DNA of 64,000 bases from a virus. Below, piece after piece: positions 3,340 to 27,065 of this stretch; position 1 is the stretch's first letter; each line of letters begins with the position of its first letter. The notes under the pieces are model-generated. The model was not told the DNA's origin and ran no database searches. It saw only the letters and a list, made by a program, of their open reading frames with translations. The stretch covers positions 1 through 64,000 of the IMG/VR virus record IMGVR_UViG_3300027977_000031. The stretch is one strand, 5' to 3'. A program made the position numbers and the translations under genes.

Positions 3340-3362
3340 ACACCCATAGACAGGAGAACAGT

Positions 3363-3569
3363 ATGAAATACTTTTGGAACAAAGCAAAAGGACTTAATGC
3401 AGATATCGAGCGCCACCGTGCAAAAGAGCAAGAGTTGGAAGCAAAGATTTCCGAGCTTGAAGGCAAACAAGATCCAATGAGTATTGCAGCACTGCGCACA
3501 TACCGTAGGTTCCTGTATCAACTGCAATCAAGCAAGGCCAATGTAGTTTCAAAGATTGGAAGGAAATAA
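3363..3569 (+). CDS. hypothetical protein
   Basis: ORF. Confidence 0.4.
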   Translation: MKYFWNKAKGLNADIERHRAKEQELEAKISELEGKQDPMSIAALRTYRRFLYQLQSSKANVVSKIGRK

Positions 3570-9280: not shown

Positions 9281-9787
9281 GTGATGACCATAGTAGAGCG
9301 AGCCCGAGTATTTGCTACCGCTGCTCATGCTGCGGTTAAACAAGTACGAAAGTACACATTTGAATCTTACATTGTGCATCCTGCTGAAGTTGCCAGTATT
9401 GTTGCCACTGTGCCTCATACTGATGAGATGTTGGCTGCTGCTTGGTTGCACGACACCGTGGAAGATACTGGTGTGACCATTGTGGATATCCAAGCAGAGT
9501 TTGGCAACGAAGTTGCTGAGTTAGTTGGGTGGTTGACTGATGTCAGTACTCCAGAACAAGGCAACAGGGCTGTTCGCAAAGCCATCGACCGTGAACATAC
9601 TGCAATGGCACCTGCAGCGGCAGCTACAGTGAAGTTGGCCGACTTAATTGCCAACAGCCGCAGCATCATGGCACACGACCCTGCATTCGCAAAAGTGTAT
9701 TTGGAAGAAAAGCGTATGTTGTTAGAAGTATTAACCCGCGGTGATGCCACATTGATGGCGCAAGCCCGCAGCATTGTAGGAGCATAG
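9281..9787 (+). CDS. HD-domain phosphohydrolase (SpoT/RelA-type HD, (p)ppGpp-hydrolase-like)
   Basis: H..HP...and [10 protein letters not shown] motifs. Confidence 0.65.
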
Positions 9788-10733: not shown

Positions 10734-11636
10734 ATGTTTAAAGATGAATTGAAGCAATATGTAGCCGACAATCCTAAGTTGGTTTCGATGAAACCAGCTG
10801 GTGACGGTATCTTTGTTTTGAAATACAAAAAAACTGTATTTTATAAGAACCTGTGGAACAAATATATTGCCGAATGTCGTGGATCTATTGTAGACAAGGA
10901 TTTTAACCTAGTTACATATCCATTTACAAAGATCTACAACTATGGTATTGAAAAAGAATCACCTGTGCTGTCAGATAACACTGAAGTAATCGCATACCGT
11001 AAAGTTAACGGCTTTATGGTTGCTTGTACGTGGGTTAACGGTGATGTATTAGTTTCTACTACCGGTAGTACCGACAGCCCATTTGTTGGCCTGGCCAAGG
11101 AAATGATGCTAACTCACATGTCATGGGCTGATTGGCAGTTGGCGTTTGCCAGTGCCGACATGCAAGGACTAACTGTAATGTTTGAGTGTGTTCATCCTGA
11201 CGATCCGCACATCTGTCCTGAAAAGGCTGGTATGTATGTACTAGGTCTTCGTGACAACAAATGGTGTAGTCGTATTGGACACAGCCCTGAAGTTCTCAAA
11301 ATAATGGGAACTGTATTCAACTGCTATGTTCCCGAAGTATATAGAGTTAGTCTAGGGGAACTCAAACAGATGACTAAAGAATGTCGTCACGAAGGTTATG
11401 TATTCTATACCCAAGATGGCGTGAGTGCCAAAATCAAGAGTCCTTACTACTTGACTTCGAAGTGGGTTGCTCGTAATCCCAACACTGACAAGTTGATGCG
11501 TGAGGATTTCAAGCAGCAAATTGAAGAAGAATATTATCCTTTGCTTGCTGCCATCCAAGCAGATATAGAAGCATATACTGCAAAGACTGAACAAGAACGA
11601 CTGACGTGGGTACGCAACTATCTGGAGGCAGCATGA
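10734..11636 (+). CDS. RNA ligase 1 (T4 RnlA-like)
   Basis: KxNG motif (RKVNGFM); ECRGSIV matches T4 Rnl1 ECRGIMF; C-terminal EGYVFYTQDGVSAKIKSPYY matches [20 protein letters not shown]. Confidence 0.65.
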   Translation: MFKDELKQYVADNPKLVSMKPAGDGIFVLKYKKTVFYKNLWNKYIAECRGSIVDKDFNLVTYPFTKIYNYGIEKESPVLSDNTEVIAYRKVNGFMVACTWVNGDVLVSTTGSTDSPFVGLAKEMMLTHMSWADWQLAFASADMQGLTVMFECVHPDDPHICPEKAGMYVLGLRDNKWCSRIGHSPEVLKIMGTVFNCYVPEVYRVSLGELKQMTKECRHEGYVFYTQDGVSAKIKSPYYLTSKWVARNPNTDKLMREDFKQQIEEEYYPLLAAIQADIEAYTAKTEQERLTWVRNYLEAA

Positions 11637-12319: not shown

Positions 12320-13084
12320 ATGCCCGTATTCTTAAACTCGGTGATAGAGTTTTACATCACTAATCAATGCAATTTAGCCTGTACTAACTGTAATAGATTC
12401 AATGATCACGATTTTCGTGGTCACTACTATTGGGAAGATTCAGCTGATGCTGTAACTGCCTGGAGTCAGAGGATTAATGCACCAATGATTACTATCATTG
12501 GTGGTGAGCCCAGCTTGCATCCTGAACTAGAAACTTGGATAGTAAATCTTCGTAGATTGTGGCCAGAAACCACAATCATGATACAGAGTAATGGTACCAA
12601 CACAAAGGTAGCAAAAAGTCTTGTCTCTTATAGTAAATACCGTGTGGGATGGGGTGTAAGTTTACATCGACCAGAGATGCGTCCTGCATTGGAACGACAA
12701 TGGGGTAACCTCATTGACAATACAGAATTTACCCCGGCTGCAATAATCCCGCAAGGTGATGTATTTGCTGTGCATAACAGTGATCCAATAACTGCATTTA
12801 ATGCCTGTACCATGCGGCATAGTCACACTATATTCAAAGGACAACTGTATAAGTGTCCTGTGATGGCAGTGTTGCCAGAATTTCGTACACAACAATCAGT
12901 AATCATGGATTCAAGGCAAGAACAGTTGTTGTCACAGTATCAACCATTAAATGCTGACTGTACTGAGCAACAGTTAGTGGACTTTGTTAATACAAGACAT
13001 CAACACATTGATCAATGTGAATTTTGCCCTGGCGTATTTGATTTCGAGCCAGTGGTATTTCATCCAAGAAAAAAAATGCTCTGA
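12320..13084 (+). CDS. radical SAM enzyme (small, QueE/activase-like fold)
   Basis: CNLACTNC = CxxxCxxC; IIGGEP motif. Confidence 0.6.
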   Translation: MPVFLNSVIEFYITNQCNLACTNCNRFNDHDFRGHYYWEDSADAVTAWSQRINAPMITIIGGEPSLHPELETWIVNLRRLWPETTIMIQSNGTNTKVAKSLVSYSKYRVGWGVSLHRPEMRPALERQWGNLIDNTEFTPAAIIPQGDVFAVHNSDPITAFNACTMRHSHTIFKGQLYKCPVMAVLPEFRTQQSVIMDSRQEQLLSQYQPLNADCTEQQLVDFVNTRHQHIDQCEFCPGVFDFEPVVFHPRKKML

Positions 13085-14583: not shown

Positions 14584-14659
14584 GCACCTTTAGCTGATGT
14601 GGTCATAGCGGCGGCCTGAAGAGCCGTGGAAGTTGGTTCAATTCCAACAGGGTGTACCA
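14584..14659 (+). tRNA. tRNA-Phe(GAA) (G37, irregular D-arm)
   Basis: Anticodon arm gcggc-ctGAAga-gccgt; T-arm gttggttcaattccaac. Confidence 0.55.
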
Positions 14660-16970: not shown

Positions 16971-17045
16971 GGTCATGTGGCGTAGATGGATGCGCACCGC
17001 CCTCATAAGGCGAGGAGGTTGGATCGATACCAACCATGACCACCA
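16971..17045 (+). tRNA. tRNA-Met(CAT) elongator or Ile2-type (third CAT tRNA)
   Basis: Acceptor ggtcatg/catgacc; anticodon loop ctCATaa; T-loop atcgata. Confidence 0.8.
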
Positions 17046-17053
17046 AGAAATTT

Positions 17054-17137
17054 GCCCCGGTGGTGTAATGGCAGCCACGCTGGTCTTAGAAGCCAGTGCC
17101 GAAAGGCGTGTCGGTTCGAGTCCGACCTGGGGCACCA
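17054..17137 (+). tRNA. tRNA-Leu(TAG), class II
   Basis: Anticodon arm ctggt-ctTAGaa-gccag; long variable arm; T-arm gtcggttcgagtccgac. Confidence 0.85.
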
Positions 17138-17218
17138 AGTTGCTAGGCCTATGGCTTGGTCGGCGGGTTTGATTCCTGCACAGTGTATGTGGATATAAAA
17201 ATTTGGTAACATTGATTG

Positions 17219-17247
17219 TTGACTAGTTCAGCAGTCAGTGTTATAAT
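17219..17247 (+). promoter_or_regulatory. sigma70-like promoter (TTGACT, 17-nt spacer, TATAAT)
   Basis: Consensus hexamers with 17-nt spacing, ahead of the 1-kb non-coding stretch. Confidence 0.55.
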
Positions 17248-17739
17248 AAGATTCAAGGGCGGTTTAACGTCCTATAAGCTAGCTTGCTGGTTTATGAAGA
17301 ATAACTGTGGTGACACAGCCAAAGGAGGTATGCCTACATAACTCCGCTAGAGATAGTTCGTTTAAGCAAGCCTGATTCAGGTCCGTGAGGATCCGATCAC
17401 TGATAAGACCGGTGGTTGTAACAATGACGCTGGATGTTGTGGAAAGAATTAGTGGCTCAAGCGCCTGCAAGGGTAACGCAAGTCATTAGAGAGTAACAGG
17501 TGGTGCTGACCTCACAACAAAACCAGTCCAGTTAATTGGTATGAGAAAGGGTAGTGTACGTGTCCGAGAGGTTGCACTCAAGGGCTTGTATGCAGTTTAA
17601 GTGGTTGATGGATGCGTAGCAATATGCAGACATTGGTCGCAAAAAACGTCTGAGTAGTTCGCAAGACAAAAGGAACGTGGTGTGTTGTATTGTGTATTCC
17701 AAAAGAGTATGCAGCAACTGAGTCAGCACATCGCAGTAG

Positions 17740-17811
17740 GTTGTTATAAGCTAATGGTAAGCTAACTCCCTGTTAAGGAGTCGACTGCGGGTTCAACTCC
17801 CGCTAACGATT
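17740..17811 (+). tRNA. tRNA-Asn(GTT) (no encoded CCA)
   Basis: Acceptor gttgtta/taacgat; D-arm agct-aatggta-agct; anticodon arm actcc-ctGTTaa-ggagt; T-arm gcgggttcaactcccgc. Confidence 0.65.
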
Positions 17812-18232
17812 AAAATGCAAAGACTGACTCGGTCGTATGTGAAAAGCATCTAATACTTGAGCCGCAAGGTAATCAAGTCAGACGTAACTCGCAAGGTGAA
17901 ATCTGTTTATGCAGGAAGTTTCGTAACAGTTTAGCGACTGTGAATGGCTCTAAAGGTCAACGGGATAGAAAGCGTAGAATAGCATACGATGTCAAGACTA
18001 ATGCCTGTCTTTAAACGGCGATGTTGGTAACAGACTAGATTACATAGCAATATGGATTTAGTGGAAGTCAGAAGAAGGTAGACTCGCAAGGTTTACTATA
18101 ATGTCTGAGGTGTTACTCGGTAAGGATGTATTCTCAGTCCTCCACTATTCTAAAGCACATTTTGATGCCTATAAGGTTATAAGGTTGATCGCTTATAATA
18201 CGGTGTGTGATGAGTGTGTTTCAGAATAGCCT

Positions 18233-18257
18233 GCCTGGTTAGCTCAGGGGTAGAGAG
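18233..18257 (+). pseudogene. orphan tRNA 5' fragment (acceptor plus D-arm) complementary to the 3' acceptor strand of the tRNA at 18888
   Basis: gcctggt-ta-gctcaggggtagaga; rc of gcctggt matches accaggt at 18953-18959. Confidence 0.4.
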
Positions 18258-18300
18258 TATTTTTGTTCAATCATGCTAAATAGTTGAGCAAGGAAATATT

Positions 18301-18822
18301 ATGTATAAATGCCACTGTGGGAAAGAATTTGAAAATCATCGTGCTAGAAATGCTCATCAAATAGCACACAAAGATAAACCTAGTCGCTACTCAATGAGTA
18401 GGAAAAAAAATCAAAGACTGTATGAGTGTGGGTATTGTAATGCAGAGTTTGAGCACAGTAATAGCACTGAAAATAAGTTTTGTTCAGTTGAATGTTCTGG
18501 AAAATATCAATGGGAGTTTGTCTCAATTCCTAAAATTGAACAAGGACTTGGTGGAAACTATAAGCGATATCTTAAAGAAAAATGCGGAGATAGTTGTGTT
18601 GAATGTGGGCAAGAAAATACCTGGAATAGCAAGCCGCTTGTATTACAATTAGATCACATAGATGGTAACAGCGATAATAATCAATTGAGTAATTTAAGAT
18701 TATTGTGTCCTAATTGTCATACACAAACAGAAACATTTGGCAATGCCGGACAAGGAAGTAGATATAAAAAGAATACGAAAAGAAATTCGTATTTGAGAGA
18801 GTACAAGGCCTCGGTAGTTTAA
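18301..18822 (+). CDS. HNH homing endonuclease
   Basis: DHIDGNSDNNQLSNLRLLCPNCH motif; multiple CxxC; AT-rich insertion. Confidence 0.7.
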   Translation: MYKCHCGKEFENHRARNAHQIAHKDKPSRYSMSRKKNQRLYECGYCNAEFEHSNSTENKFCSVECSGKYQWEFVSIPKIEQGLGGNYKRYLKEKCGDSCVECGQENTWNSKPLVLQLDHIDGNSDNNQLSNLRLLCPNCHTQTETFGNAGQGSRYKKNTKRNSYLREYKASVV

Positions 18823-18881
18823 TGGTAGAACGCCATCCTTACACGGTGGATACGGGAGTTCGATTCTCCAACGAGGTACCA
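18808..18881 (+). tRNA. tRNA-Val(TAC)
   Basis: Anticodon arm ccatc-ctTACac-ggtgg; overlaps the 3' end of the HNH ORF. Confidence 0.7.
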
Positions 18882-18887
18882 AATATT

Positions 18888-18963
18888 GCCAAGATAGCTC
18901 AGTAGGTAGAGCACCGGATTGAAAATCCGGGTGTGGGCGGTTCGATCCCGTCACCAGGTACCA
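18888..18963 (+). tRNA. tRNA-Phe(GAA) with defective 5' acceptor strand (3 mismatches)
   Basis: Anticodon arm ccgga-ttGAAaa-tccgg; T-arm ggcggttcgatcccgtc; 5' gccaaga does not pair with 3' accaggt. Confidence 0.5.
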
Positions 18964-18966
18964 AAT

Positions 18967-19371
18967 AACATGACCAAAGTAATAGTAAACGGAACATTTG
19001 ATATATTGCATCGTGGACATCTAATGATGTTACAACACGCAAAAAGTCTCGGCGATCATCTGTTAGTGGCAATTGATACAGATCGAAGAGTAAAAGAACT
19101 TAAAGGTGAAAATCGGCCTATTAATAATCAAGATGATAGACGATATATGTTAGAAAGTTTAAAATGTGTTAACACTGTTTACTTCTTTGATAGCAAAGAA
19201 CAACTGATAGATATAATGAAAGAATATAAACCAGACATCATGGTCAAAGGCAGTGACTGGCAAGGTAAGAGCGTAGTGGCACAAGAACATGTTAATCAAG
19301 TGATATTTTATGATAGAGTCGGTGAATACTCAACAACAAAAACAATTCAAGATATTGCTAATAGGCGATAA
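18967..19371 (+). CDS. nucleotidyltransferase (cytidylyl/adenylyltransferase, RfaE domain II / HldE C-terminal-like)
   Basis: NGTFDILHRGH (HxGH) motif. Confidence 0.7.
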   Translation, partial: NMTKVIVNGTFDILHRGHLMMLQHAKSLGDHLLVAIDTDRRVKELKGENRPINNQDDRRYMLESLKCVNTVYFFDSKEQLIDIMKEYKPDIMVKGSDWQGKSVVAQEHVNQVIFYDRVGEYSTTKTIQDIANRR

Positions 19372-20071
19372 CTGTACTGATGTGTACCAATATGGTACTA
19401 TTGATAGGTTAAGTCCCGAAGCACCTGTTCCTGTATTTGTTCCTACTCGTACAGAAGAACGTGCTGGCATGGCTGGTAATGTAGCTAACAACTTAAAAGC
19501 ACTGGGTTGCTATGTTGACTACTTGCACGGTGAAACAAGTGTTAAAACTAGACTTATCGACGAGCGTAGTAAACAACAGATTGTTCGTATAGATAGAGAC
19601 GTTCAGTCAACTCCCATTACATTTGATACAGATATCCCCGACATGTACGATGCTATTGTAATCAGTGATTATAATAAAGGAACTGTTAGTTACGAACTAA
19701 TTGAAGAACTTATTGCATTGAGTATTCCTATCTTTATCGATACTAAGAAATCTGACCTTGAGAGATTCCAAGGCGCATGGGTCAAGATCAACGAATTAGA
19801 ACATAGCAAAATTAAAAGTGAATGTTCAGGTCTAATCGTCACACGAGGCAGTCGAGGTGCTAGTGCAATACATCATAGTATAGATGTATCTTCGCACAGT
19901 GTAGAAGTAGTAGATGTAACTGGAGCAGGTGATACCTTTCTAGCAGCGTTAACTTATCAGTACCTTGACACTGGAGACATTGAAAAAGCAATTAAATTTG
20001 CCAACCTGGCGAGTGCGGTTACTGTGCAGCATTCAGGGGTTTATGCTCCAACATTAAAGGAAATAGGATGA
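19310..20071 (+). CDS. PfkB-family carbohydrate kinase (RfaE domain I / heptose-7-P kinase-like)
   Basis: VTGAGDTF ribokinase-family signature. Confidence 0.65.
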   Translation: MIESVNTQQQKQFKILLIGDNCTDVYQYGTIDRLSPEAPVPVFVPTRTEERAGMAGNVANNLKALGCYVDYLHGETSVKTRLIDERSKQQIVRIDRDVQSTPITFDTDIPDMYDAIVISDYNKGTVSYELIEELIALSIPIFIDTKKSDLERFQGAWVKINELEHSKIKSECSGLIVTRGSRGASAIHHSIDVSSHSVEVVDVTGAGDTFLAALTYQYLDTGDIEKAIKFANLASAVTVQHSGVYAPTLKEIG

Positions 20072-20427
20072 CACAATTACAAGGTTATGTAGCAAAGGGA
20101 TGGGGCCACGAACTAATTTGGGCCACTAACGACCTATACTGTGGCAAACTTATGAAGTTTAACAAAGGTGCCAAGTTCAGCATGCATTTTCATGCTATCA
20201 AAGACGAAACATGGTATGTGTTGGACGGATTGTTCACTGTGATCAGTATTGACACTACAAATGCTGATCAAACAACCACAACACTTAAACCAGGCGACAC
20301 TTGGCGCAACAAACCGTTAGCGCCTCATCAGTTGATATGCATCGAAGAAGGCACAGTTATTGAAGTCAGCACAGCAGACAGTGTGGAAGACAACTATCGT
20401 GTGGGCAAAGGCGACAATCAAAAATGA
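20068..20427 (+). CDS. cupin-fold protein (sugar isomerase/epimerase-like)
   Basis: Size and HxH...E-like beta-barrel pattern; sits in the sugar operon; overlapping stops. Confidence 0.3.
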   Translation: MTQLQGYVAKGWGHELIWATNDLYCGKLMKFNKGAKFSMHFHAIKDETWYVLDGLFTVISIDTTNADQTTTTLKPGDTWRNKPLAPHQLICIEEGTVIEVSTADSVEDNYRVGKGDNQK

Positions 20428-21215
20428 ACATACTGTTAACCGGCTATAAAGGTTTTATTGGTAGTCATGTGCTGACAGCACTGGAGGCTGCTGGACACTG
20501 TGTATCAACATACGACTGGGGAGACAGTTTGCCCAGCGTGATGGAACAAGATTGGGTGATTCACCTTGGTGCTATCAGCAGCACTACCGAAAGAGACATA
20601 GACAAAGTAATGCGACAAAATTTTGATTTTAGTCGACAACTATACGATGCTTGTAAAACATATGGCGTTAATTTCCAATACGCAAGCAGTGCAAGTGTTT
20701 ACGGGTTAACCAGTACATTTAGAGAAGACGCTCCGGTTGACCCACGTACTCCTTATGCGTGGAGCAAATACTTGTTTGAACGTTATGTACGCGATCATCC
20801 AAGTGGGAGTGTTGTACAAGGTTTCCGTTATTTTAATGTGTACGGACCTGAAGGCGAAGAACACAAAGGCAATCAAGCTAGTCCGTTTATGCAATTTAAA
20901 CGCCAAGCTGAAACAAACGGCTGTATACAAGTTTTCGAAGGCAGTGAATATTATCTAAGAGACTTTGTTCATGTGTCTAAACTAGTCGACACACACTTGG
21001 ATTTCTTGTATAATACACCTAGTGGCCTATGGAACTTGGGTACTGGAAAGACCATGAGTTTTATGGATGTGGCAAAAAGTTTTAACGTACCTGTTGAAAC
21101 AATCCCCATGCCCGACAATTTAAAAGACTCATATCAAAAGTACACCTGTGCTGATATGAGCAAGTTTAACGCAACGGTGGCAGAGAGGTCCAATGCACGG
21201 GATTGCAAATCCTGA
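20424..21215 (+). CDS. NAD-dependent epimerase/dehydratase (HldD/RfaD-like); the 3' end runs 45 nt into tRNA-Cys
   Basis: Rossmann GYKGFIGS (GxxGxxG); the ORF only terminates inside the tRNA at 21171. Confidence 0.6.
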   Translation: MNILLTGYKGFIGSHVLTALEAAGHCVSTYDWGDSLPSVMEQDWVIHLGAISSTTERDIDKVMRQNFDFSRQLYDACKTYGVNFQYASSASVYGLTSTFREDAPVDPRTPYAWSKYLFERYVRDHPSGSVVQGFRYFNVYGPEGEEHKGNQASPFMQFKRQAETNGCIQVFEGSEYYLRDFVHVSKLVDTHLDFLYNTPSGLWNLGTGKTMSFMDVAKSFNVPVETIPMPDNLKDSYQKYTCADMSKFNATVAERSNARDCKS

Positions 21216-21248
21216 AAACCGGGGGTTCAAATCCCTCCCGTTGCTCCA
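21171..21248 (+). tRNA. tRNA-Cys(GCA)
   Basis: Acceptor gcaacgg/ccgttgc; anticodon arm cggga-ttGCAaa-tcctg; T-arm gggggttcaaatccctc. Confidence 0.85.
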
Positions 21249-21255
21249 GTTAATA

Positions 21256-21330
21256 CTCGGTGAGGTGTTGATGGCGACACACGTGGTTTGGGACCATGAA
21301 TGGCAGATTCGAGCTCTGCCACCGAGACCA
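21256..21330 (+). tRNA. tRNA-Pro(TGG)
   Basis: Acceptor ctcggtg/caccgag; anticodon arm cgtgg-ttTGGga-ccatg. Confidence 0.7.
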
Positions 21331-21336
21331 AACAAT

Positions 21337-21420
21337 GCGACTGTGGCGTAATTGGTAGCCGCAAGGGACTTAAAATCCCTCGAGTTTCTCGTACCGGTTC
21401 GAGTCCGGTCAGTCGCACCA
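21337..21420 (+). tRNA. tRNA-Leu(TAA), class II
   Basis: Acceptor gcgactg/cagtcgc; anticodon arm aggga-ctTAAaa-tccct. Confidence 0.85.
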
Positions 21421-21434
21421 TTTTGTTTCGAGCG

Positions 21435-23504: not shown

Positions 23505-24197
23505 ATGAAATTGATTTTTTGTTTCCCAGGGCAATCATTCAGTAAAAATTGGATGGCCGCATGGAATGACACTATTCGTTGGCTTTATAAAAACAATATA
23601 GAATACATAACCATAAATGCATATTCGCCGGTAATTTACAACTGTCGAAACATGTTGTTGGGTGCCACTGGCAATCCTCCCAGGACTTTCCAGCCATTCA
23701 ACGGCACAATAGATTACGATTGGATCATCTGGATCGACAACGATAATATCTGGACACCTGCTGATCTTGCACAATTGATCAGCAACCCCGAACACAAGAT
23801 TGTCACTGGACTTTATATACAGCATGACAATAAAACTTATGCACAGGCTGTGATTCATGGTGATAGCAAAACCAACCTGTTGTGGTTACCACGAGAGCTA
23901 GTACAAATCAACGGAAGTAGATTCCAAGTGGCCGCAACAGGTATGGGTTTTATGGCTGTGCAAAAAGGTGTATTTGAATCCATGGAATGCCCATTCTTCC
24001 GACCCGTCGAATACAAAGTTGATGATGATACAACTGCATTTTTATCAGAGGATACAGGGTTCTGTCACAGAGCTATAAATGCAGGATATAATGTATGGGC
24101 AGATCCACAGATTCAGGTCCAACATGAGAAGGCATGGTTGTTGTCCGGCAACAGTGAACACGGGGTTCGACCTGAGAATATTGTGTTAAATAGATAA
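23505..24197 (+). CDS. hypothetical protein, possible glycosyltransferase
   Basis: DxD-like IWIDNDN; ATGA overlap with the downstream radical SAM gene. Confidence 0.3.
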   Translation: MKLIFCFPGQSFSKNWMAAWNDTIRWLYKNNIEYITINAYSPVIYNCRNMLLGATGNPPRTFQPFNGTIDYDWIIWIDNDNIWTPADLAQLISNPEHKIVTGLYIQHDNKTYAQAVIHGDSKTNLLWLPRELVQINGSRFQVAATGMGFMAVQKGVFESMECPFFRPVEYKVDDDTTAFLSEDTGFCHRAINAGYNVWADPQIQVQHEKAWLLSGNSEHGVRPENIVLNR

Positions 24198-25240
24198 TGC
24201 AACCACCCAAATTCTTGTTCTTAGATATCAACCTACAATGCAATCTCAAATGCAAGACCTGCATGTATTGGACCAGAGAAGAAGTTGTATTACCCACACA
24301 CATATCTATAGAACAACGCAGTGATATCATCACGGAATTCAGTTCCTTAAATCCGTATGGTGCCGTGGTAATCTGTGGCGGCGAAGCCTTGATGAATCCC
24401 GAAAGATATTGGCCTATAACCACTCAATGTCGTGAGTTAGGATTAAAATGTTTGAGTGTGATGAATGGCACCATGGTCACAGATCTGGCGTTTGCCAAGA
24501 AATTGATCACACAAGGTCCTAGTGAAATAACAATTTCGCTAAACAGTTACATTCCAGAAGTACATGATTCAACTCGCGGAGTCACAGGATCATTTGATAT
24601 GGCAGTGAATGCTATTCGGTTGTTGTTGCAGGCAAGAAAAGAATTAAACAGCAACACCCCCATCTATGCCATGTCGGTCATGTGCGAACAGAACTATCGA
24701 GACCTGGATCAGTTTTACCACTTTGTGTTGAATGATCTCGGAGCAGATAAGTTAAAATTGAATTGGTTGCAGCCAACATTTGGCACATTGTTAGACAAGA
24801 ATGGCGATCCAAGACCAGACAAATTTTACGACAACAATGTGATCCGCGATCATGAAGCATTGTTTGAGATCATGAATCATTGTTCAGAAAAATATCAGTT
24901 GAATCTAGATCCTGAATATATAGAAACTGTACGTCGATATCATCGCAGTGTGTTTAAAAATGCAGATGCTGTGACAGGATGGGACGGACACGGTACTGAA
25001 GATGCCATATGCAATAGTTTTGATCGCAACATCATGGTCAACATGGATGGTATTGCCCGTTTGTGTTTTTCTGATCAGTTTCCCAGTTTCAAGATTAGCA
25101 GTCCTGGTGATCTCACACGATTATGGAACAGTGCCGAACCAATAAGAAATCTCATGAGACCTTGTAGACAATATTGCGGAATCAGTCACAGTGTGAGAAG
25201 AGTCAATGCTGTGAAGAAGATTGACATCAATTTGGTTTGA
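24197..25240 (+). CDS. radical SAM enzyme
   Basis: CNLKCKTC = CxxxCxxC near the N-terminus; CGGEA glycine-rich motif. Confidence 0.65.
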   Translation: MQPPKFLFLDINLQCNLKCKTCMYWTREEVVLPTHISIEQRSDIITEFSSLNPYGAVVICGGEALMNPERYWPITTQCRELGLKCLSVMNGTMVTDLAFAKKLITQGPSEITISLNSYIPEVHDSTRGVTGSFDMAVNAIRLLLQARKELNSNTPIYAMSVMCEQNYRDLDQFYHFVLNDLGADKLKLNWLQPTFGTLLDKNGDPRPDKFYDNNVIRDHEALFEIMNHCSEKYQLNLDPEYIETVRRYHRSVFKNADAVTGWDGHGTEDAICNSFDRNIMVNMDGIARLCFSDQFPSFKISSPGDLTRLWNSAEPIRNLMRPCRQYCGISHSVRRVNAVKKIDINLV

Positions 25241-25663: not shown

Positions 25664-25741
25664 GCGACTGTATGCCGCTTGGCTTCGAACCAAGAGAAAG
25701 CTAAAGGATTCATGCAGGTTCGAGTCCTGCCAGTCGCTCCA
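25664..25741 (+). pseudogene. aberrant tRNA-like gene (same acceptor as Leu-TAA; perfect hairpin cttgg-cttcgaa-ccaag in place of a D-arm)
   Basis: Acceptor gcgactg/cagtcgc; T-arm gcaggttcgagtcctgc; CCA encoded; internal arms non-canonical. Confidence 0.35.
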
Positions 25742-26640: not shown

Positions 26641-26715
26641 GCTGATATAACACAGAGGTAGTGTGCTTTCTTGGTATGAAAGAGGTCGTAGGTTCAAATC
26701 CTGCTATCAGCACCA
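26641..26715 (+). tRNA. tRNA-Thr(GGT)
   Basis: Acceptor gctgata/tatcagc; anticodon arm ctttc-ttGGTat-gaaag. Confidence 0.85.
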
Positions 26716-26722
26716 AATTCAC

Positions 26723-26751
26723 TTGACAGCATGTAGAAATAAATATATACT
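26723..26751 (+). promoter_or_regulatory. sigma70-like promoter (TTGACA, 17-nt spacer, TATACT) driving the tmRNA
   Basis: Consensus hexamers immediately upstream of the tmRNA acceptor piece. Confidence 0.55.
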
Positions 26752-26786
26752 GTAAGTTAAGACTGTATGAAGGAAAAAGAACAATT

Positions 26787-27065
26787 GACTGGACGCGGGG
26801 GGCGGTGCCCCGCCCGGTCCACCATAAGAGCATACGGTGTTTTTATGATGGGCCGGTCTTAGATTCGACAGTCGGTGCAGTATTTGACTGGACAGTCCGG
26901 CAATGTAGAAGCCGTTAGGATTGGGGTAACCCGGTCGTAGACACAAAAAACCTAAATGCAAACGATGCATACTTTGGAGAAGAACGCCTAGCAGCGTGAC
27001 CTCCACGAGGTAGTTATACCTTGTAACCAAAAATAACAGAGGCCCGCTTCGGCGGGCTTTCTTTT
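26787..27065 (+). ncRNA. ssrA: circularly permuted (two-piece) tmRNA, ssrA; tag peptide (A)NDAYFGEERLAA
   Basis: Acceptor piece GGAC-gcgggg-ggcggtg-ccccgc-ccggtcc-A-CCA parallels the E. coli tmRNA 3' end GGACGCGGGTTCAACTCCCGCCAGCTCCACCA. The downstream coding piece starts gggccgg-tcttaGATTCGACagtcgg (compare E. coli GGGGCTGATTCTGGATTCGACGGG), carries gca aac gat gca tac ttt gga gaa gaa cgc cta gca gcg tga, and ends in an intrinsic terminator. Confidence 0.6.

Follow-up and report, generated by a model that had tools for sequence, protein, structure and literature searches.

What is the 5′ end of a transfer RNA (tRNA) gene doing on its own in a phage tRNA array, and to which gene did it once belong? 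The question is raised by positions 18233–18963 of a viral sequence from IMG/VR (record IMGVR_UViG_3300027977_000031, positions 1–64,000; this whole 64,000-nucleotide (nt) stretch is referred to below as the window). Here a short tRNA-like fragment, hereafter the stub, is followed by a gene for an HNH endonuclease, by a complete tRNA-Val(UAC), termed Val′, and by a tRNA-Phe-like gene with a faulty acceptor stem. A first-pass annotation described the arrangement as a homing-endonuclease cassette that had invaded a tRNA-Phe gene and left an orphan 5′ fragment. The comparisons reported here uphold the invasion and the orphan fragment and replace the gene: in our opinion, the locus is probably occupied by a free-standing cassette with an HNH homing endonuclease, whose home and most likely target are the tRNA-Val(UAC) genes of phages, and the interior of the resident tRNA-Val has been replaced.

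The stub reads GCCTGGT-TA-GCTC-AGGGGTA-GAGA-GTA and passes into a run of T. It comprises the acceptor strand and D-arm of a tRNA, as originally annotated, and nothing of the tRNA beyond them. Its 23-nt sequence occurs once in the window when up to three mismatches are allowed and gave no match in 100 shuffles. The acceptor strand GCCTGGT pairs at all seven positions, with G-U at 1–72, with ACCAGGT at 18953–18959, the 3′ strand of the Phe-like gene; this complementarity, too, had been described correctly.

The origin of both strands becomes apparent from an allele that lacks the endonuclease. When IMG/VR was searched for sequences like the 3′ end of this Phe-like gene, 14 loci (L001–L014) were returned, among them L011, which is 98.7–99.5% identical to window positions 17159–18253 and 96.5–98.8% identical to positions 18929–21424. 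In L011, exactly these flanks enclose a single intact tRNA-Val(TAC) (GCCTGGTTAGCTCAGCGGTAGCAGCGCCCTCCTTACAAGTGGGATGTCGGCGGTTCGATCCCGTCACCAGGTACCA) and no endonuclease, so that 675 nt of the window (18254–18928) stand in place of 20 nt of the L011 tRNA-Val. Downstream of 18963, the flank and a cytidylyltransferase gene are common to the window and L011 (96.5–98.8% identity). The two near-identical genomes thus differ by the presence or absence of the element at one site. The first 15 nt of the stub are those of the intact tRNA-Val of L011, and its first 23 nt are those of an intact tRNA-Val in L025, which stems from the L011 metagenome and is less closely related. Because L011 holds an intact tRNA-Val between the same flanks, the stub and the 3′ acceptor strand are the two ends of one resident tRNA-Val(UAC), not of a tRNA-Phe, and their complementarity is inherited from it. 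The search among related phages for an uninterrupted tRNA-Phe allele, proposed with the first-pass annotation, thus led to an intact tRNA-Val at the site instead.

The mobile unit consists of nt 1–26 of a tRNA-Val (the stub), a leader, the HNH gene and Val′. In L038, the stub, HNH gene and Val′ recur with a single mismatch over window positions 18231–18885 (99.8% identity), within flanks unrelated to those of the window; a third context, L073, encodes the same protein. The identical HNH protein is present on at least 23 contigs in at least two genomic contexts. The same element is thus found at an equivalent target in unrelated genomes (L038 and L073), as is characteristic of a free-standing homing endonuclease gene (HEG). 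In the window, L038 and L073 alike, homology sets in precisely at tRNA nt 1, and a C24-to-A change in the stub is common to all three. The stub therefore travels with the cassette; in recent transfers it acted as the left homology arm.

Protein-guided scans of IMG/VR and JGI metagenomes yielded 42 loci. Wherever a relative had at least 43% protein identity and its contig reached far enough downstream, which was so for about 30 loci (about 25 distinct contigs), a tRNA-Val(tac) begins where the HNH open reading frame (ORF) ends or just inside it; in the window, the final 15 nt of the ORF overlap the 5′ end of Val′. In most of the linked loci, the start codon is also preceded, at a distance of about 45 nt, by a tRNA 5′ stub. 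These stubs vary in the acceptor strand (GCCTGGA, GCCCGGT, GCATCGT, GGGTCGT, GCCTAGT and others), the canonical D-arm is common to them, and all end at about nt 22–27.

The D-arms separate the two kinds of tRNA-Val. A non-canonical D-arm, like that of Val′, is present in all 18 distinct HNH-linked Val sequences, while the canonical D-arm (TTAGCTCAG.GGTAGAGC) is present in the stubs and in eight of nine unlinked Val(tac) genes, a small and partly biased set; the ninth lies in L069, about 1 kilobase (kb) downstream of a decayed HNH gene. The stub retains the canonical D-arm and is without the anticodon arm. This pattern fits a target spanning the D-arm and the anticodon stem, in which case neither the stub nor Val′ would contain the target, and it is consistent with a carrier genome that holds no intact target and is therefore immune.

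Other loci and alleles record decay and further exchange. L069 has the stub and leader followed by a frameshifted and truncated HNH gene, and in L070 and L071 the stub is fused to the last 25 HNH codons and Val′. L006 and L013, which are close to the window on the right side, contain Val′, 16 nt and then only a 27-nt 3′ remnant of the resident Val, with no HNH gene, no stub and no Phe part. L075 matches the window through the end of Val′ and diverges after 18882 into a different right flank. The site is therefore a recombination hot spot with several coexisting alleles. Two Logan contigs (L076 and L077) stop at window position 18934, just before a T-arm shared by tRNA-Phe and tRNA-Val; the breaks at this T-arm and at the end of Val′ suggest that several right-junction alleles co-exist in natural populations.

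Could such a pattern arise from general recombination between the tRNA arrays of co-infecting phages, with the HNH gene as a passenger or in another role, for example in DNA packaging or defence? The tRNA arrays of these phages are highly mosaic even among near-identical genomes, recombination boundaries commonly host nuclease genes (PMC10448857), Val′ occurs without an HNH gene in L006 and L013, and site-specific homing by the HNH protein is argued here from sequence comparison. However, a fixed left junction (tRNA nt ~22–27) combined with a fixed right partner, tRNA-Val(UAC), at about 30 loci and down to 43% protein identity is predicted by site-specific homing and not by random recombination. 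Moreover, the cassette is near-identical in unrelated genomes, the catalytic residues of the HNH protein are invariant, and the HNH gene does not adjoin a terminase. A purely passive origin is, in our view, improbable.

It should be noted that several points weigh against the homing interpretation. The variants L006/L013 and L075 are products of other recombination events at the same spot. The exact donor, that is, the cassette followed by a tRNA-Phe of the L025 type, was not found among the 80 fetched loci, and the tRNA-Phe genes of L038 and L073 are variant sequences, not of the L025 type. The set of unlinked Val genes is limited by its sampling, as L001–L014 were fetched with the resident Val's own 3′ end. 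Since Val′-type tRNA-Val genes exist without an HNH gene, in L006/L013 and in Pseudomonas phage phiPsa374, Val′ is not exclusive to the cassette; phiPsa374 has the Val′-like tRNA and no adjacent HNH gene. At about 15–26 nt and 17 nt, the homology arms are rather short by the standards of ordinary recombination, and the specificity for tRNA-Val is deduced from genome comparisons.

The Phe-like gene at 18888–18963 (GCCAAGA...ACCAGGT-ACCA, anticodon GAA) has a perfect D-arm, and its anticodon arm and T-arm are present. Its acceptor stem pairs at G1-U72, C2-G71, C3-G70 and G6-C67 and is mismatched at the remaining three of seven positions (A4/A69, A5/C68 and A7/A66). The first-pass annotation had counted these three mismatches on the GCCAAGA strand, and the Rfam tRNA model flags the same pairs; ARAGORN makes no call for this segment. 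The Rfam score is 48.5 bits, compared with 65.7–66.6 bits for intact relatives, and the minimum-free-energy fold is a cloverleaf in the intact relatives and not in the window gene. A tRNA-Phe with a paired 7-bp acceptor stem is thus not found at 18888–18963, and the gene is very probably non-functional, as the first-pass annotation had considered possible.

Scans with the 5′ part of this gene led to intact versions of the same tRNA-Phe, with the acceptor stem GCCAAGA/TCTTGGT. In L025, an intact tRNA-Val is followed by AATATT and then by an intact tRNA-Phe that is identical to the window gene over nt 1–65; only the 3′ acceptor strand differs, the intact gene bearing TCTTGGT where the window bears ACCAGGT. 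The Phe part is not present in the HEG-less allele L011, and an intact tRNA-Phe also follows the cassette in L038, L054 and L073. The gene at 18888–18963 is thus best described as a Phe(1–65)/Val(66–76) hybrid, in which an imported Phe fragment is fused to the old Val tail; it is probably an inert by-product.

With this hybrid in hand, the original proposal can be judged: that a tRNA-Phe gene, with the stub as its old 5′ end, was invaded or partly duplicated by the cassette and inactivated. The stub's acceptor strand does complement the 3′ strand of the Phe-like gene, and its D-arm resembles that of the Phe gene. However, the HEG-less allele between identical flanks is a tRNA-Val(TAC), which refutes the proposal; the stub is nt 1–23 of the intact L025 Val, whereas the intact Phe has a different acceptor stem; and L006 and L013 retain the Val 3′ remnant without any Phe part. 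Neither of the conditions under which the first-pass annotation would have fallen arose: in no relative was this site arranged in the same way with a stem that pairs well, and the fragment does derive from a tRNA. An origin from tRNA-Phe is nevertheless highly unlikely. The Phe part being donor-derived, as L025 indicates, no pre-existing Phe gene was inactivated. For this reason, the second tRNA-Phe(GAA), which is confirmed at 14584–14659 and had been suggested to compensate for the loss, compensates for nothing.

A functional interrupted or split tRNA, put together from the stub and the far-off 3′ acceptor strand by way of an intron or by processing in cis or trans, would also explain the perfect 7-bp complementarity between 18233–18239 and 18953–18959. 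Descent from a single tRNA-Val, as in L011, accounts for this complementarity fully, and the old Val anticodon arm is gone. A permissive Rfam scan of 17600–19400 (E up to 10) found tRNAs and the GOLLD RNA only and no group I or group II intron or ribozyme family; the HNH gene is not embedded in a self-splicing intron or intein, and its ORF is separate from any host ORF. L075 has the stub and cassette without a 3′ partner, and the stubs are partnerless in most other loci, which leaves a split tRNA with very little credibility. Least probable of all is a metagenome assembly chimera at repeated tRNA sequences: the junctions do lie within short stretches common to tRNAs, and two Logan contigs end at 18934, but both junctions recur at 100% identity over 5.8–6 kb in independent assemblies, made with different assemblers from different samples (an ENA sample for L072, a Logan run for L074), and the common stretches, of 15 and 17 nt, fall below the k-mer lengths usual in assembly.

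We return, then, to a homing cassette in tRNA-Val(UAC), whose parts are listed in Table 1. Genome comparisons demonstrate how the locus is built and in which order it arose: the 3′ end of the resident Val, with its flank, must have been in place before the Phe part.

Table 1. Parts of the occupied tRNA-Val site, in window coordinates
Feature	Position	Strand	Evidence
5′ stub, nt 1–26 (acceptor strand and D-arm) of the resident tRNA-Val(UAC)	18233..18258	+	Match to the Val genes of L011 and L025
Cassette leader: T-run, conserved TAAATAGTTGAGCAAGGA box, ribosome-binding site	18259..18300	+	Kept in 13 aligned cassettes
Free-standing HNH endonuclease gene, 173 amino acids	18301..18822	+	Pfam HNH and PHROG matches
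Val′, complete cassette-borne tRNA-Val(UAC) with non-canonical D-arm GTTTAATGGTAGAAC	18808..18881	+	ARAGORN; Rfam tRNA, 50.1 bits
Spacer AATATT, donor-derived	18882..18887	+	Same spacer between intact Val and intact Phe in L025
tRNA-Phe(GAA) nt 1–48, donor-derived passenger	18888..18935	+	Identical to the intact Phe of L025 and L024; not in L011
17-nt T-arm GGCGGTTCGATCCCGTC, right-hand crossover zone	18936..18952	+	Identical in L025 Phe, L011 Val and the window
3′ acceptor strand ACCAGGT and ACCA of the resident tRNA-Val(UAC)	18953..18963	+	Identical to L011

In an ancestor of this phage, the site was occupied by a single intact tRNA-Val(UAC), with the GOLLD RNA on one side and the cytidylyltransferase gene on the other. 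For the enzymatic steps, we infer the following. The HNH enzyme would cut or nick the canonical tRNA-Val(UAC) of co-infecting phages near the boundary of the D-arm and the anticodon stem, and the break would be repaired during co-infection by copying from the cassette-bearing genome. The donor was another phage, one with a tRNA-Phe behind the cassette, and DNA copied from it took the place of the middle of the resident gene. On the left, the crossover fell within the first 15–26 nt of tRNA-Val, and the right arm would be whatever downstream homology exists. Since the recipient had no Phe neighbour, the exchange was resolved on the right within the 17-nt T-arm that is identical in the donor Phe and the resident Val. 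The outcome is an orphan Val stub, a working replacement tRNA-Val and a Phe/Val hybrid whose acceptor stem is unable to form. As neither the stub nor Val′ would hold the full target, the carrier would be immune.

A more far-reaching interpretation, to which we give about even credence, is that the HNH family is a natural cleave-and-rescue element for a single isoacceptor: it would destroy the canonical tRNA-Val(UAC), supply an immune tRNA-Val, and hop between unrelated phages by means of tRNA-internal homology alone (~15–26 nt at the 5′ end and ~17 nt in the T-arm).

The nuclease itself can be assigned to the HNH endonuclease superfamily. It matches Pfam HNH (PF01844) with 27.4 bits (cutoff 21.4) and 19 PHROG HNH families (best E = 1.2e-24). 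D118-H119, N127/N131, H140 and C99/C102/C136/C139 are invariant in 15 homologues (43–91% identity), and the catalytic His-Asn-His/Asn motif and the zinc-binding CxxC pairs are intact. Because these catalytic and zinc residues are invariant, the window copy looks, by prediction, active. The HNH gene and tRNA-Val between the stub and the Phe-like gene had both been recognized in the first-pass annotation, which called the endonuclease gene AT-rich; the enrichment is only mild (GC 0.35, compared with 0.38–0.46 nearby), and base composition is a weak indicator of foreign origin here. In cultured phages, no tblastn match covered most of the HNH protein at more than 37% identity, and megablast of window positions 17600–19600 against GenBank phages gave tRNA-sized matches only; a cultured model is thus not at hand. 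Against solved structures, the sole hit was a marginal C2H2 zinc-finger match to residues 2–29 (E = 0.3), which was not used. The corresponding N-terminal stretch, YKCHCGKEFENHRARNAHQIAHKDKP (window 18301–18390), has the look of a C2H2 zinc finger; it is missing from the shorter homologues (138–152 amino acids; L018, L055, L058, L062 and L064) and may be an optional DNA-binding module.

How does this family relate to known systems? Within the tRNA cluster of phage T4 lies the gene for SegB, a free-standing homing endonuclease of the GIY-YIG type that cuts tRNA T-arms and co-converts neighbouring tRNA genes; the end of its ORF abuts a tRNA, and cutting of the mRNA by tRNA 5′ processing has been proposed for SegB and tRNA-Arg (PMC2330249). 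The SegB–tRNA association is widespread and shows no isotype preference (PMC13096335). SegB cuts the tRNA genes of relatives that lack it, its homing erases recipient markers, and microhomology between tRNAs and HEGs drives rearrangements (PMC2330249; PMC13096335). The present family resembles SegB as a free-standing endonuclease gene in a phage tRNA array with an ORF end abutting a tRNA (PMC2330249; PMC13096335). Unlike SegB, a GIY-YIG enzyme that addresses the generic T-arm of many tRNAs, it is of the HNH type and tied to tRNA-Val(UAC), and its cassette sits inside the remains of its target and brings along a complete substitute gene. Only HNH-type families match the protein; it works like SegB and is not a member of the SegB type.

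F-TflIV (hegA) of phages T5 and BF23 and the related F-Tfl HNH enzymes of the T5 tRNA region are likewise HNH endonucleases in or near a phage tRNA cluster. F-TflIV is 49% identical to the HNH core, but this holds for residues 99–159 (~60 amino acids) alone; elsewhere the two proteins are unlike, both in their N-terminal zinc-finger-like regions and in the conserved basic tail, and the present protein is not F-TflIV-like over its full length. In BF23, F-TflIV has no tRNA-Val linkage or stub, and the nearest tRNA is ~950 nt away. In intronless homing, or localized marker exclusion (T4 SegF, SegG and MobE), a conserved gene is cut in the HEG-less phage, and when the cut is repaired, the HEG is copied along with the allele of the donor, which resists cleavage. 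MobE is a documented T4 example of intronless homing (PMC2790892). With SegF, SegG and MobE, the HEG stands beside an intact protein-coding target, whereas here the target is a tRNA gene of which a truncated piece remains, and the function comes from another copy, complete and divergent. In the Citrobacter phage Maleficent (Mooglevirus), an HNH ORF with a homologous core ends 1 nt before a tRNA in a dense tRNA array; unlike in the present cassette, the partner is a tRNA-Leu, and the identity is 42% over the core. Upstream of the Maleficent HNH/tRNA-Leu junction, no tRNA stub was seen. Thus, the present family works like the SegB and F-TflIV systems and is only distantly related to F-TflIV; particular to it are the linkage to one isoacceptor, the residence in a truncated target and the self-supplied substitute tRNA.

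The case does not overturn current understanding, as the principle was already set by SegB and the T5 endonucleases; it is a well-documented and fairly ordinary instance of homing in a phage tRNA array. Its value lies in being a clean natural example, with an empty site, an occupied site, donor-like copies and decayed copies together, and in illustrating how HEGs remodel phage tRNA arrays. The element lives inside its own target with a replacement gene aboard, and very short conserved tRNA segments are enough for its transfer among phage genomes that are distantly related or not related at all. It also explains tRNA stubs and mispaired pseudo-tRNAs in phage genomes, and annotators should bear in mind that "tRNAs" of this kind may be scars left by recombination. 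Should the specificity prove to be as predicted, the 173-amino-acid enzyme would be a small nuclease that recognizes a defined tRNA-gene sequence and a natural analogue of engineered cleave-and-rescue drives. If the cleave-and-rescue interpretation also holds, every phage tRNA array would be a landing pad, with hybrid tRNAs as raw material or debris.

The HNH gene is probably co-transcribed with the tRNA array. Because its stop codon sits within Val′, processing of Val′ by RNase P would strip the stop codon from the HNH mRNA. Around the cassette, no sigma-70 promoter or intrinsic terminator signal rose above chance; a conserved TAAATA box presumably resembles a T4-type late promoter. An alignment of 13 cassette leaders gave no conserved RNA structure (0 covarying pairs, z = -0.49). 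Pairing of the stub with the conserved TTGAGC leader box was considered as a gate on translation and rejected, as the 6-bp helix proposed by RNAalifold shows no covariation and the single-sequence z is -0.49. A perfect 8-bp hairpin at the 3′ end of the ORF in the window (AATACGAA/TTCGTATT) was likewise set aside, with no consensus structure in 18 homologues.

Some further features of the site and of the array should be recorded. In L006 (~3345–3440, - strand) and also in L013, an element of ~95 nt with complementary ends (CCACATACAT...ATGTATGTGG) lies ~35 nt upstream of Val′; it includes a T-arm-like GGTTCAATTCC and is recognized by neither ARAGORN nor the Rfam tRNA model. The same two loci have a consensus TTGACA-17-TATACT promoter just after a tRNA-Val(GAC). 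The GOLLD RNA occupies window positions 17677–18140 on the + strand (Rfam RF02032, 200.8 bits, threshold 150), with a tRNA-Asn inside it (17739–17812), and its 3′ end is ~90 nt upstream of the stub. It is also present in L011, and L003, L004, L008 and L010 have copies that are ~80% identical; in the HEG-less allele, the intact tRNA-Val comes directly after it. One more mosaic boundary between near-identical phages lies at window positions 16994–17159, compared with 371–2452 of L011: the window is without ~2 kb that include a tRNA-Val(GAC), and the Met and Leu(tag) copies differ.

The tRNA array as a whole is on the + strand and comprises 29 ARAGORN-called genes between 7.6 and 26.7 kb of the window. 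Genes of RNA-repair and modification type are interspersed in it, namely a T4 Rnl1-like RNA ligase (10734–11633), an HD_4 domain protein (9281–9784) and two radical-SAM proteins (12320–13081 and 24197–25237). A phage transfer-messenger RNA (tmRNA) is located at 26709–27062 on the + strand (Rfam beta_tmRNA, 91.7 bits, threshold 84; ARAGORN silent), and the permuted-tmRNA model scores 94.1 bits on the same RNA at 26761–26999; the beta_tmRNA match hints at a betaproteobacterial host. An extra match to the tRNA model at 25664–25738 on the + strand (41.4 bits, threshold 29), with no ARAGORN call, may be another degenerate or unusual tRNA.

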